From the sequence record NC_028847.1: a stretch of DNA of 64,000 nucleotides; one strand, written 5' to 3'. The stretch is from Escherichia phage QL01. A model generated the notes under the pieces. The model was given only the letters and a program-made list of their open reading frames with translations, made no database searches and was not told the origin of the DNA. Position numbers and translations under genes: made by a program. Positions within the stretch are counted from its first letter, which is position 1, and each line of letters opens with the position of its first letter. Shown here in pieces: positions 14,280-59,838 of this stretch.

Positions 14280-14513
14280 TTAAACTACTGGGGTAGGCGT
14301 AAACATCGCCGCGTTCTTAGTTCGCCAATCGGCTGCATCAGTTACTACAGTAGTGTATGCCGCCTTTTCAGAAGGAAATGTCTGATAGTGTGCATTCGCA
14401 ATACGATGCTCGTTTGAATAGATTTCAAACGGGACAGATACTTCAACACCTTTAACTTCTTTACCTTCACCAGCCGGATGCGTAAAGGTTTTAATATTAA
14501 CGAAACCACCCAT
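14280..14513 (-). CDS. soc: small outer capsid protein
   Basis: 77 aa; VNIKTF and AHYQTFPSEKAAY motifs as in T4 Soc; late promoter upstream, terminator downstream. Confidence 0.85.
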   Translation of the reverse strand: MGGFVNIKTFTHPAGEGKEVKGVEVSVPFEIYSNEHRIANAHYQTFPSEKAAYTTVVTDAADWRTKNAAMFTPTPVV

Positions 14514-14544
14514 AATTAACTCCTTTGTTGTTTAATTACAGGTG

Positions 14545-14552
14545 TATTTATA
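14545..14552 (-). promoter_or_regulatory. late promoter (TATAAATA) for soc
   Basis: Exact TATAAATA on minus strand about 30 nt upstream of soc ATG. Confidence 0.6.
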
Positions 14553-14554
14553 AC

Positions 14555-15076
14555 TTAATAACCTCGGTCCTGGCGAGCAAAGTTCTCGGCATTTTTCAGG
14601 TAATACAGTTTAAAGATTTCTTCAGCAGTCAGTCCAAGACCTTGGAACATATTCAGAACAAAGTGCAGAATATCAATCATTTCGAATTTAATTTCGAGCT
14701 GGTCTTCAGGAGACAAATCGTTAATCAGGGTTTCACGACGTTCAGCATGTTGAGCTTTCCAAGGCTTCCATACAGCGCTCGCATCTTTTTCGCCATTGCT
14801 CATGCCACCAAGAGAAGTCAGAAGTTCGCGGAATTCATCATCAATATAATCTTTCTGATTGCGCAACCAATCAACAACTTCACCTGCAGTAGCCAAGTCA
14901 TCAGGATGACGGTTATATTCAGGTTTATCTTTAGCCAAACGGACCTGTAATGATTTCTGCATATCAAGCATAACCTGCAGAGGGTCTTTATCTTCGTGAA
15001 TCAGAGCATTAAAATAAGCTTCCTCAGCTTTATCAACACCAGCAATAAGTTGTGAGCATTCGTTAAAGTGTGCCAT
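14555..15076 (-). CDS. 56: dCTP pyrophosphatase (MazG-like)
   Basis: 173 aa; size, position between soc and 61; MazG-like helical NTP-PPase pattern. Confidence 0.8.
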   Translation of the reverse strand: MAHFNECSQLIAGVDKAEEAYFNALIHEDKDPLQVMLDMQKSLQVRLAKDKPEYNRHPDDLATAGEVVDWLRNQKDYIDDEFRELLTSLGGMSNGEKDASAVWKPWKAQHAERRETLINDLSPEDQLEIKFEMIDILHFVLNMFQGLGLTAEEIFKLYYLKNAENFARQDRGY

Positions 15077-15167
15077 TATATTTTTTCCTTTTCAATTCAT
15101 TAGTAAGTTAGATAATTATAAACTGTTAGATTAAAGCGAATAAATATTAATTTAACAGGAGGATAAC

Positions 15168-15368
15168 ATGGGCAGTATTTTTTACCAAATCTGGAAATTG
15201 GCCGAAAAGAAAGACAAGAAAATGATGTTAGGTTTTCTTGCGCTAGACGTATTCCTTTGGAATCTTCTAGTAGTCCCTGTAGCCGCTAGCCAAGGGATAA
15301 TTTTACCAGCGGTTACAATGGAACACGTATTAAGCATAATTGGATTCTTTAGCGGAGTTCCTGCCTAA
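15168..15368 (+). CDS. small hydrophobic membrane peptide, plus strand
   Basis: 66 aa; AGGAGG SD 5 nt before ATG; predicted TM segments; only well-supported plus-strand ORF in window. Confidence 0.4.
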   Translation: MGSIFYQIWKLAEKKDKKMMLGFLALDVFLWNLLVVPVAASQGIILPAVTMEHVLSIIGFFSGVPA

Positions 15369-16393
15369 ATTTTAGAATATTTTGAAAGTCTCATTTTTGC
15401 CATTAAACCTTGGGCTATATTAGCTTTCATATATGCCAGTACATCATTTATATCAGCTTTATCTTTCATAATCATATCATTTATATCTTTAGAAGGCCAT
15501 GGAGCCTTGTCCCAGAATAGAACCCTTTCGCCAGCATCAACTAATCGTTGCATACGCTTAATTGTGTCAGGATGGCGGGGTTCATTGTCCATTACCCAGG
15601 CACGAGTTTCTTTACATGGAACCATAGCCAAGTCCAACGACCCGCCAGTAATTGCTATTGCATTCGGAACAAACAAAGAGTCAATAGGGCCTTCCATTAC
15701 CCACACCAACTGACGTTCGTCAACTGTATCCATTCCATATATTTTTGTAGCTTGGTCATGAGCTTTTATTGTAATATATTTTTGTGGAGCATCTTTACGT
15801 AAGGCTCGACCCTGAAAACTTTCAATTTGTTTATTCTTATTGAAAATTGGAATAACCAAACGAGGCTCAGGCATTTCTTTAGAATAGGTCCCTGGATTGA
15901 CAGAGTTCACCAATGCCGGCCATTCTTTAGTAAACCATAAGCGATTCCATTTGTTTTCAGGAATGCAACGTAGTGTTACATATTTGATAATAGGATGGTC
16001 CTTTGGCATTCTATCCAGACGTTCACAGAAATTAAGCTTTTCGATGACAGGCATCTTGGCTTTAATCTTTTCTGATATCTCCACCTTAGGTGCAGCTTGT
16101 CTCCCGAACGATTGCTCTTTATGTTTCTCAAGAATATATTCTCGATATAAATCAGGCTCATATTCGTATAGATACTTCTTAATTCCTGCTGAATAGTCAC
16201 AGTTAAAACAGTGCAGCATTACGGAGCCGTCATTGGCCGGATAGGCCCAAAAACGAGCTTTGTTCTCATCTTTTAGGGAGTCGCCACATACACGACAACG
16301 ACAGTTTAATTTAAAATCACTACCAGTTACTTGTCTGAATTTAGGTTGATAATTCAAGGCACGTACAGCAAATTCTCTATCGACATATGACAT
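15365..16393 (-). CDS. 61: DNA primase
   Basis: 342 aa; zinc-binding CRCRVCGD...CFNC and TOPRIM-like region; matches T4 gp61 size. Confidence 0.9.
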   Translation of the reverse strand: MSYVDREFAVRALNYQPKFRQVTGSDFKLNCRCRVCGDSLKDENKARFWAYPANDGSVMLHCFNCDYSAGIKKYLYEYEPDLYREYILEKHKEQSFGRQAAPKVEISEKIKAKMPVIEKLNFCERLDRMPKDHPIIKYVTLRCIPENKWNRLWFTKEWPALVNSVNPGTYSKEMPEPRLVIPIFNKNKQIESFQGRALRKDAPQKYITIKAHDQATKIYGMDTVDERQLVWVMEGPIDSLFVPNAIAITGGSLDLAMVPCKETRAWVMDNEPRHPDTIKRMQRLVDAGERVLFWDKAPWPSKDINDMIMKDKADINDVLAYMKANIAQGLMAKMRLSKYSKI

Positions 16394-16609
16394 TATTTTT
16401 CCTTGGGCTCTAAATTAATAGAGCCATTATATCATTCGTTTTCGGATTTTTCTTTACGCTTTTTAGATGGGATTTGTTCAGGCCCTTTGTTGACGACTGC
16501 GCCTGAGGTAGTTCCGGAGGCAATATTAGATGGGTTTCCACCTGCATCGCCTGCGACCATATCTTCGTTCATAACTTCTTTAAAAGATTTCATAGGCTCC
16601 TGGCCTTAT

Positions 16610-16801
16610 TTATATTACGAAAATAGCTTTATCACCATTTGCATCAGTGACTTCGTACGTATCTTCGTGGTAAAGTGGAATAATCCAAGTCACACCATCA
16701 CCGGCAATAATATGGATAGCTTCTTGGTCCTTTGATACGATTTCATACTCTTCGAATAATTCGAATACAGAAATCTTAGAGCCCGTACACATTGCACTCA
16801 T
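16610..16801 (-). CDS. hypothetical protein
   Basis: Trimmed to Met7. Confidence 0.35.
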   Translation of the reverse strand: MSAMCTGSKISVFELFEEYEIVSKDQEAIHIIAGDGVTWIIPLYHEDTYEVTDANGDKAIFVI

Positions 16802-17725: not shown

Positions 17726-17753
17726 AATGTTCTCCTCGGTAGTTGATAGGTCC

Positions 17754-17783
17754 ATAGTATCACTACCATAGACCGTTGTAAAC
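17754..17783 (-). promoter_or_regulatory. early-type promoter cassette
   Basis: GTTTAC, 18 nt, TACTAT. Confidence 0.5.
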
Positions 17784-17784
17784 T

Positions 17785-18024
17785 TTATTTTAATGAATCT
17801 TCCAAATAAATTTTACGGAATTTACGTTTTGTCTGACGAATCTGACGCTTAGTGGGCTTCACAGGAAATTCGAAGAACTCTACGTATTCTTGTTCATAAT
17901 CGTTGTGGCCCACTGAAAGAACTAGTTCCCAGTTGTTTACGGTACGTTGGATAAACATATTATGCTTACCGAAAGATTTATTCCAAAAAGAGCTAGGAGT
18001 TGGTTTCATTAGTACGATATTCAT
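17785..18024 (-). CDS. hypothetical protein
   Basis: 79 aa basic ORF. Confidence 0.4.
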   Translation of the reverse strand: MNIVLMKPTPSSFWNKSFGKHNMFIQRTVNNWELVLSVGHNDYEQEYVEFFEFPVKPTKRQIRQTKRKFRKIYLEDSLK

Positions 18025-52526: not shown

Positions 52527-52618
52527 ACAAAAGTCCTTTGTTGTTTTATACTATTTGCCTTTCGGCCTTAACCGATAGCGATTACCAAAAGCTAAAGCTC
52601 TACGGTTAGTATTATTAT

Positions 52619-52897
52619 TTATAGCTTTTTAAGCTTACGACAATAAGAATAGAACACGTCGTTAAAATTATATTCAACCCAATTCCTCTGTATAGGCGAG
52701 GTAATGGAAAGCATATAATGCGCTTTAATTAAATCCATCCCGTTTTTATTAGGACACTCTTTATTATTAGCATTATACGTCGCTGCTACAACCTCTATCT
52801 CTCTTTTGTAAGCCACATCATCCATGATAGGCGAAAGAACAATATAAGAAATAGCCACAGCGAACGCTAGAATTAAAATCTTTGAATTTAGGTCCAT
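52619..52897 (-). CDS. signal-anchored periplasmic protein (rI-position candidate)
   Basis: 92 aa; N-terminal TM/signal anchor; immediately upstream of tk as T4 rI; no motif confirmation. Confidence 0.3.
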   Translation of the reverse strand: MDLNSKILILAFAVAISYIVLSPIMDDVAYKREIEVVAATYNANNKECPNKNGMDLIKAHYMLSITSPIQRNWVEYNFNDVFYSYCRKLKKL

Positions 52898-58928: not shown

Positions 58929-59327
58929 TTATTTATAGGTCTTCATCCAATTCTTGAACAAAGCCGCGACGTCTTTCTCTTTAACGTTCAGTTTAATGTC
59001 CAACATTTTACCACCCGCTGCTCTGGTTTGGCGAATCTTAGCAGTACCGGTTTCGCCATTCCACTCAACATAATACTGTCCAGTGTTCATTGCAATACCA
59101 TCACCGTAGTCTTCATTTTTAGAAGTGGTGAATGCTAGCTTCATAGTCTTAGATACACGAGCCTGCATGCCTGTCTGAAGGGCATTACGAACGCGAATAA
59201 CCTGAGGAGTGGCCTGGGTCAAGTTCTCATTCAGTTCTTCAGTGAACTCTTCAGATTCAAACATCGCCAAAAGTTCTTTAGATGCAGGAATTACATTCTC
59301 TGCGATAAATTCATTATAAGTTTTCAT
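58929..59327 (-). CDS. internal protein (capsid-targeting sequence)
   Basis: 132 aa; N-terminal [11 protein letters not shown]. Confidence 0.6.
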
Positions 59328-59812: not shown

Positions 59813-59838
59813 CCTCCTGAGTATAGGAGGTATTTATA
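59813..59838 (-). promoter_or_regulatory. late promoter (TATAAATA) plus SD-sequestering hairpin for gene e
   Basis: TATAAATA on minus strand; CCUCCU...AGGAGG inverted repeat pairs the SD; late start falls inside the hairpin. Confidence 0.6.

Follow-up and report, generated by a model that had tools for sequence, protein, structure and literature searches.

T4-type phages carry a family of small genes deposited under the names dam.1 (in T4T), VR7ORF033w and WG01_29, and the record note of a further homologue, in PhAPEC2, describes it as similar to RB69ORF029w. The family is already catalogued, as phrog_2024, as a hypothetical protein, and what we report here is the re-annotation and characterization of one of its members, not a new kind of element. 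This member lies in a 64,000-nucleotide stretch of Escherichia phage QL01 (NC_028847.1), hereafter the window. It has in common with T4T dam.1, RB69ORF029w, VR7ORF033w and WG01_29 its strand, a position convergent with gene 61, a late-promoter core, a Shine-Dalgarno sequence and a W-N...P...G...P signature in the product. Judged by its sequence it is a member of the dam.1/phrog_2024 family, all the family features that we tested being present in it. The protein encoded in the window is identical to WG01_29 (100%) and matched the PHROG profile phrog_2024 almost end to end (E=5.8e-28; residues 1–64 of 66 on profile positions 1–64 of 65); members of the family are 61–74 aa long. It differs from the T4-type dam.1 in that it belongs to the JS98/Marfa subfamily and is 24% identical to the T4 type.

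The open reading frame (ORF) spans 15168..15368 on the plus strand of the window, with an ATG start, 66 codons and a TAA stop. To its left lies the gene for the gp56 dCTPase (14555..15076, minus strand) and to its right that for the gp61 primase (15365..16393, minus strand). The surrounding DNA (14500–16500) is 99.6% identical to Escherichia phage WG01 and 95% identical to JS98 (Dhakavirus, Tevenvirinae, T4-type). A sequence-only reading of the window had described the ORF as a lone plus-strand frame between genes 56 and 61, all else being on the minus strand, and the WG01 annotation agrees: over the span of the window it holds about 131 other genes, all on the minus strand, a count that is taken from this near-identical genome. 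The ORF is the sole opposite-strand gene, and its upstream region holds the sole plus-strand ATAAATA, in this early region of approximately 64 kb. The AGGAGG Shine-Dalgarno sequence attributed to it in that reading was located 5 nt ahead of the ATG, and this hexamer occurs five times on the plus strand of the 64 kb. The proposed convergent overlap with the stop of gene 61 was likewise found: the TAA (15366–15368, plus strand) interlocks with the gene 61 TAG (15365–15367, minus strand) in a 4-nt overlap that includes both stops. The features of the locus are as follows.

15139..15146, plus strand: late-promoter-like element AATAAATA, the sole plus-strand ATAAATA of the window, with a core kept in 13 lineages; presumed active.
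15157..15162, plus strand: Shine-Dalgarno sequence AGGAGG, 5 nt 5′ of the ATG; GGAG(G) at similar spacing in all lineages compared.
15168..15368, plus strand: coding sequence of 66 aa plus TAA, orthologue of WG01_29, supported by dN/dS, frame openness and the phrog_2024 match.
15168..15221, plus strand: residues 1–18, an amphipathic helix (MGSIFYQIWKL) at the N-terminus with a Lys-rich cluster after it, predicted to be cytoplasmic from the AlphaFold2 model and charge.
15222..15290, plus strand: residues 19–41, a predicted transmembrane helix with W31, N32 and P37 (Kyte-Doolittle hydropathy; AlphaFold2 helix 14–41).
15258..15308, plus strand: residues 31–47, the signature W-N-x4-P-x-A-x3-G-x2-L-P read from the alignments, at the outer helix end and in the loop that follows.
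15318..15353, plus strand: residues 51–62, a short C-terminal helix with a near-invariant acidic position 52 (AlphaFold2, alignment), predicted to be periplasmic or interfacial.
15365..15368, both strands: interlocked stops of the ORF (TAA, plus) and gene 61 (TAG, minus), read from the sequence.

The same interlocked stops are present in T4, Marfa, VR25, STP4-a, CF1, Kosakonia 305, PhAPEC2 and one metagenomic contig. No terminator was found between the ORF and gene 61, where intergenic space is absent, and the first plus-strand terminator-like hairpin 3′ of the ORF stop is at 16594. An Rfam search of the locus returned no match.

The ORF body overlaps no other coding sequence, so that its conservation cannot be borrowed from another gene. 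Among the Dhakavirus and Marfavirus relatives, dN/dS (Nei-Gojobori) was 0.02–0.13; between genera, synonymous sites were saturated and dN was 0.12–0.23. Differences by codon position were 11/3/35 between the window and Marfa and 15/9/38 between the window and the second Gaprivervirus copy. Across 23 homologous copies, the annotated frame alone was open throughout. Two other candidates were rejected: a minus-strand 51-aa ORF (15182..15337), whose frame is broken in several lineages, and a dual-start motif at M19/M20, where both residues are unconserved. The purifying selection, the frame-specific openness in the 23 homologues and the conservation in hundreds of genomes together argue that the ORF is almost certainly a genuine protein-coding gene. 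The earlier proposal of a genuine, separate plus-strand gene is thereby upheld, since the codon-level conservation whose absence was to speak against it was found (dN/dS 0.02–0.13; 11/3/35 by codon position). That the frame is instead a chance opening in the spacer between 56 and 61 might be suspected from its shortness, from its A/T-rich surroundings and from the lack of any annotation in T4 (NC_000866), JS98, JS10 and PEi20; however, it is open in hundreds of genomes at 20–100% identity with change biased to third positions, it matches phrog_2024 over its full length and its late-promoter core is kept, and this explanation, already refuted by the conservation, has a negligible chance of being correct.

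tblastn placed the window protein in 293 phage records and a T4-type relative in 699, from which the family appears to be present in roughly a thousand Tevenvirinae records. Eleven genera were checked, including Marfavirus, whose record gives no Tevenvirinae assignment in its taxonomy line, and the gene was conserved in all of them. This locus holds a homologue in Tequatro-, Mosig-, Dhaka-, Gapriver-, Marfa-, Jiaoda-, Mosuguk-, Kanagawa-, Gelderland- and Moonvirus and in a metagenomic T4-like contig. In the genera checked the homologues lie on the plus strand and nearly always converge on gene 61; a gap separates the two genes in Jiaodavirus and EAWsc9. In T4 itself (NC_000866), a 66-aa ORF at 17738..17938 (plus strand) lies unannotated between dam and 61, with the stops interlocked. 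RB49 (Krischvirus) has no dam.1 gene, and its genes 56 and 61 are just 14 nt apart.

The family divides into two deep subfamilies, a T4/RB69 type and a JS98/Marfa type. The window protein is of the second type, with the N-terminus MGxxFYQIWKL and D27 in the helix. The neighbouring products have diverged less between T4 and the window, with 63% identity for gp61 and 69% for gp56, compared with 24% between the window protein and the T4-type subfamily. Gaprivervirus carries one copy of each subfamily in tandem, of which the second has a frameshift in VR20 and has been lost from EAWsc9; because the tandem copies decay in this way, the sequences point to partial redundancy and dispensability.

Names in the records vary. 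A few label homologues 'putative holin', 'holin family protein' or 'Holin', and some homologues are plainly misnamed, for example as 'DNA packaging ATPase'. Pfam gave no match to the window protein at E up to 10 and none that was significant for 20 members, and NCBIfam returned a noise match alone (SspI, E=0.12). A profile search of 1.84 billion representative proteins yielded eight matches, all but one of them small T4-like proteins; a 1433-aa repeat protein was judged spurious, its 'LSASQGxxLQ' repeats matching a low-complexity stretch. A wider word-index profile search returned 121 proteins and, among the matches listed, three off-type names. A profile search of the PDB gave noise alone (YejA and a nicotinic-receptor transmembrane helix, E at or above 0.05), and Foldseek comparison of the AlphaFold2 model with viral structures found nothing beyond family members. 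The published ASEC2201 holins were also considered and are a different family from dam.1. No study of dam.1 turned up in the literature, whether under the names dam.1 and ORF029w or among work on Ribo-seq, small proteins and lysis inhibition in T4, and the HIDEN-SEQ paper leaves the dam.1 locus unmentioned.

The region upstream of the ORF had been described as A/T-rich with elements resembling TATAAATA, and this corresponds to the late-promoter consensus of T4. The consensus, TATAAATA, occupies positions −13 to −6, and in T4-like phages its T at −13 is poorly conserved, being A or T (PMC1524935). In the window, AATAAATA stands at 15139–15146 in A/T-rich surroundings, 21 nt 5′ of the ATG, and predicts a transcription start near 15152 and a 5′ untranslated region of approximately 16 nt. 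The putative promoter carries A, not T, at −13, a departure from the consensus that counts against this reading. When the 50 nt 5′ of the start codon were aligned across 13 lineages, TAAATA was invariant (13/13) at 12–26 nt from the ATG, extended to ATAAATA in ten lineages and to TTAAATA in three; the exact TATAAATA precedes the homologue in two of the 13, Marfa and Kosakonia 305. A GGAG-type Shine-Dalgarno sequence follows the late core in all 13. The leaders of T4 and the window are nearly identical although the proteins are 24% identical.

Such sites are scarce in the window. ATAAATA occurs once on the plus strand, compared with about 14 occurrences expected from base composition, and the sole site is the putative promoter element of the dam.1-family gene; VATAAATA was seen three times against 18.8 expected. 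The same motif scan found a site upstream of soc both in the window and in T4, which lends credit to the approach. Exact copies of TATAAATA in the window lie close to soc, the rI block, the internal-protein region and e. Matches resembling sigma-70 promoters showed no excess over shuffled sequence, and no early-type promoter rose above chance. On these sequence grounds, the dam.1-family gene is likely to be transcribed late in infection. Its own gp55-type late promoter, AATAAATA at 15139–15146, would confine transcription to the late period through gp55-RNA polymerase, and the AGGAGG ribosome-binding site would allow efficient translation of the ORF.

The arrangement of the locus also bears on antisense transcription. 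Because the two genes lie tail to tail without a terminator, the late mRNA of the ORF would run antisense into the primase gene. Conversely, early and middle read-through from 61 towards 56 would be antisense to the ORF and would help to keep it silent early. A dRNA-seq study of T4 reports 150 phage transcription start sites, 22 of them antisense (bioRxiv 10.1101/2024.04.04.588121). Could the RNA be the main product, a late plus-strand transcript antisense to the primase (61) mRNA in which the ORF is incidental? The interlocked stops, the tail-to-tail order with no terminator before 16594 and the preservation of the gene 61 junction in most genera are what such an RNA would predict. It does not, however, account for strong purifying selection at the protein level with invariant residues, nor for the conservation of a strong ribosome-binding site; moreover, the coding part of 61 lies outside the ORF, and Jiaodavirus and EAWsc9 have a gap before 61. 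We regard an RNA as the main product as highly improbable, and an antisense effect in addition to the protein function as rather unlikely.

The product had been described as a 66-aa hydrophobic peptide with one or two membrane passes, and hydropathy, charge and the AlphaFold2 model agree with that description, with one pass the likelier. Kyte-Doolittle analysis (19-residue means, maximum 2.05) gave one clear transmembrane stretch, residues 19–41, together with a C-terminal segment of moderate hydrophobicity. The AlphaFold2 model, built on a 48-sequence alignment, has moderate confidence (mean pLDDT 69, pTM 0.44) and places helices at residues 3–11, 14–41 and 51–62 with a loop at 42–50. The N-terminal helix has a hydrophobic moment of 0.50. 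Because the helix at 51–62 is too short for spanning the bilayer, the model makes a one-pass topology more likely than a two-pass one. Across the 48 homologues the mean net charge is +3.4 before the helix and −1.3 after it, and the C-terminal segment holds at most one Lys or Arg. This distribution, positive before the helix and negative after it, follows the positive-inside rule, from which the modelled product is probably an inner-membrane peptide with its N-terminus inside and its C-terminus outside. The window protein lacks cysteine and hence a lipobox, which gave a negative result in the test for a lipoprotein or o-spanin.

Conservation is concentrated in one part of the peptide. Among 48 diverse homologues, W31, P37 and G43 are invariant, N32 and P47 are present in at least 90%, and A39 and L46 occur in 41 and 32 sequences, respectively; A39, L46 and G63 reach 90% in a smaller, 20-sequence alignment alone. 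Position 17 is K or R in all 48 and position 52 is E or D in 45. The window protein has W31, N32, P37, G43 and P47 together with the acidic residue at position 52. The conserved core is thus predicted to lie at the outer end of the helix and in the juxtamembrane loop on the periplasmic side. The amphipathic helix at the N-terminus is subfamily-specific, and the first 18 residues are strongly conserved within each subfamily. The hydrophobic segments contain the polar residues D27, N32, E52 and H53. In the molecule that we envisage, a cytoplasmic amphipathic helix and a Lys/Arg cluster would be followed by one transmembrane helix with the W-N...P signature, and a short acidic, hydrophobic C-terminal helix would lie at the periplasmic face.

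The same residues can be read as a cleaved signal peptide, in which signal peptidase I would cut after A39-x-[A/S/T]41 and release an active periplasmic peptide of approximately 25 residues (QGIILPAVTMEHVLSIIGFFSGVPA). P37 would then be invariant at −5, A39 would stand at −3 in 41 of 48 sequences, a small residue would occupy −1 (A in 29, T in 13 and S in 5 sequences) and G43 would be invariant at +2; the n-region is positively charged, and the T4 protein has a classic A-I-A|H-G. By the rules for signal peptides, however, an n-region and a hydrophobic core of such lengths suit an uncleaved signal anchor, and here we count about 18 residues in the n-region and about 18 in the core before P37, which would be more typical of an anchor. 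Thr, found at −1 in 13 of 48, is a poor signal peptidase I residue, and the (near-)invariance of W31/N32 in the core and the conservation of the 18 N-terminal residues are unlike a disposable targeting peptide. We consider cleavage unlikely and retain the uncleaved, one-pass inner-membrane peptide as the working description.

As to what such a peptide might do, the sequence-only reading had named holin/antiholin-like, exclusion and toxin-like peptides as possible classes. Membership of a canonical holin family was not found in Pfam, and exclusion fits poorly with promoter signals that are late only.

A second holin or pinholin would oligomerize in the inner membrane and itself form the lethal lesion. 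The window protein shares with canonical small holins (class I/II and pinholins) its size, its hydrophobicity and a probable late expression under tight control. It is small with at least one transmembrane domain, as the generic description of holins has it (66 aa, one stretch), and the polar residues D27, N32, E52 and H53 in its hydrophobic segments, the depositors' labels quoted above and sub-threshold Pfam similarities to YwcE (0.014) and GTA_holin_3TM (0.081), each in 2 of the 20 members (E 0.014–0.08), point the same way. However, other parts of that description, a hydrophilic, highly charged and usually basic cytoplasmic domain at the C-terminus and a place in a lysis cassette, do not apply: the C-terminal end is hydrophobic, slightly acidic and devoid of a basic tail, the charged domain is N-terminal, and the gene adjoins no lysis gene. 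The dam.1 product further differs from canonical holins in having one membrane-spanning helix in the AlphaFold2 model, no significant match to the Pfam holin families (window protein at E up to 10; 20 members) and no adjacent endolysin gene. T4-type phages, moreover, already encode holin T. A second holin or pinholin is therefore improbable in our estimate, and the dam.1-family product is probably not itself a canonical holin.

A peptide of this kind could also act in superinfection exclusion or immunity, blocking DNA entry or the incoming tail lysozyme in the manner of T4 Imm or Sp (spackle). Like the dam.1 product, Imm and Sp are small proteins of the envelope, and in Tevenvirinae genomes their genes lie in the same early-region neighbourhood. 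An inner-membrane protein with a conserved motif on the periplasmic side would suit such a role, and dam.1 is found, like spackle, in the Tevenvirinae genomes examined, neither being annotated in the RB49 stretch examined. Against this, exclusion in T4 is at work from the first minutes after infection, whereas the late type is the only conserved promoter signal of the dam.1-family gene (no early-type signal being above chance) and early transcripts through the region would be antisense to it. Imm and Sp are encoded on the early strand, whereas the dam.1 gene faces the other way and follows a late-type promoter; no similarity to the Imm or Sp families was found in Pfam or NCBIfam. We rate an exclusion role as quite improbable.

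Late timing as for structural genes, a strong ribosome-binding site and a membrane location would in turn be expected of a morphogenetic membrane anchor, for the prohead (gp20/gp40 initiator) or for baseplate assembly. RB49, however, lacks the gene and yet annotates the gp40 head vertex assembly chaperone, the protein diverges fast between genera (24% identity, compared with 63–69% for its neighbours), the decay of tandem copies in Gaprivervirus suggests that it is dispensable, and no link to head genes was found; such an anchor is accordingly very improbable.

A further point of comparison is the T4 antiholin RI, which like dam.1 is a small T-even envelope protein and whose block in the window is preceded by an exact TATAAATA. 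In both proteins a hydrophobic helix with many small residues stands near the N-terminus and closes with an AxA-like motif that contains Pro, a likeness that we note as a lead only; at the helix end, RI reads ...FVLSPSIEA|N and T4 Dam.1 ...FILSPVAIA|HG. RI differs in its periplasmic domain, which is about 70 residues long, and in having next to no cytoplasmic N-terminus, compared with a basic 18-residue N-segment and about 25 residues after the helix in dam.1, and Pfam, NCBIfam and the representative-protein profile search detected no homology of the dam.1 family to RI.

The reading that we tentatively favour is that the peptide assists the lysis or envelope programme late in infection, a role that we hold to be possible. 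In T4, soc, the rI block, the internal-protein genes and e have virion or lysis functions; because the exact TATAAATA sites of the window lie near such genes, and because a membrane peptide suits the lysis group better, we lean towards lysis or the envelope, with class priors as the basis of the argument. An abundant late inner-membrane factor would tune the timing of holin T-dependent lysis or preserve the membrane until lysis. The lysis genes known in T4-type phages already form a complete set (T, RI, RIII, E and spanins), which counts against a new role. The window ORF adjoins no lysis gene. RB49, again, lacks the gene, an observation that stands against a lysis or envelope role. Taken as a whole, our best explanation of the locus, a genuine late gene for a membrane peptide with, less certainly, an accessory part in lysis or the envelope, has in our estimate an even chance of being right.

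In its most far-reaching form, this reading would make Dam.1 an overlooked component of T-even lysis or lysis inhibition, in all Tevenvirinae lineages examined, that sets holin T triggering or seals the membrane until lysis; it would be produced late only, by virtue of its gp55-type promoter and antisense pairing, and its transcript might dampen late primase mRNA. We regard this form as doubtful. Were Dam.1 a true lysis component, the lack of the gene in the reference T4 annotation would be the reason why it went unnoticed for decades. T4 is among the best-studied viruses, yet a small gene under selection is conserved in all Tevenvirinae lineages examined (RB49/Krischvirus being without it) and is absent from the T4 reference annotation, on which most omics and functional-genomics screens probably rely. 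If it does contribute to the timing of lysis or to the integrity of the membrane, a classic model would gain a new player, and the gene would be relevant to the engineering of therapeutic T4-like phages.

We compared the interval between gene 56 and the 66-aa ORF in seven related phage loci (L002, L003, L004, L007, L022, L023 and L024) and found that it is an insertion hot spot: the junction of the ORF with gene 61 is constant across related loci, while the gene 56–ORF interval varies. In T4, dam lies between gene 56 and the ORF homologue; at the same position KP1079 and Kosakonia 305 have homing endonucleases, Kanagawavirus and Moonvirus an extra NTP pyrophosphohydrolase, and Marfa small ORFs. 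In IME08, VR5 and AnYang, genes for mobE or a homing endonuclease are present at other places in the locus.

Alignment of the upstream leaders (A4) revealed AAGCG (GCG in T4) directly 5′ of the late-promoter core (ATAAATA/TAAATA), at window positions 15133-15138 and their equivalents. This element is common to the Dhaka, T4, PM2 and Mosig lineages despite their different upstream neighbour genes.

In the Gaprivervirus phages VR25 and VR26 the ORF is represented by two tandem paralogues 8 nt apart, the first of the T4 type and the second of the JS98 type, with a late-promoter core before the first copy only. The second (JS98-type) copy is frameshifted in VR20 and missing in EAWsc9.

Gaprivervirus paralogue coordinates, by locus
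L005: 1295-1492 and 1501-1701
L018: 1535-1699
L020: 1495-1692

The homologous 66-aa ORF of T4 (plus strand, 17738-17938 of reference NC_000866; L004 3739-3939) is unannotated there but appears as dam.1 in the T4T record (HM137666), and those of JS98, JS10 and PEi20 likewise lack annotation. Wrong names given to homologues in public records are 'DNA packaging ATPase' for the homologues of SAKp28, VAC36, MY02 and UPEC01, and 'dCTP pyrophosphatase' both for the SEA1 homologue in UniRef and for the feature under the homologue match in phage dhaeg; 'Holin' has been given to some homologues without supporting homology. Eight weak matches to family profile residues 36-61 came from P0035, a 1433-aa metagenomic protein with many tail-fibre-like 'PLSA[NS]QGxxLQ' repeats; we judged these repeat matches a compositional coincidence.

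The T4 late-promoter consensus octamer, TATAAATA, occurs exactly five times in the window, every time on the minus strand.

Exact TATAAATA sites
14545-14552, minus strand, 32 nt upstream of soc
16607-16614, minus strand, 14 nt upstream of 61.1
52616-52623, minus strand, upstream of the rI.1/rI block
58930-58937, minus strand, internal-protein region
59831-59838, minus strand, within the nudix (e.1) gene, ~240 nt upstream of e

Judged from these motifs, late transcription from the 61.1 site and the ORF's own late transcript would converge across gene 61; the 61.1 site has no conserved counterpart in T4. Across the whole window, ATAAATA occurs once on the plus strand (at 15140), against ~14 expected from base composition, and seven times on the minus strand, against ~16 expected; VATAAATA was found three times, against 18.8 expected from shuffles. 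The core is far rarer than expected, and its scarcity suggests counter-selection of stray late promoters, above all those antisense to early genes.
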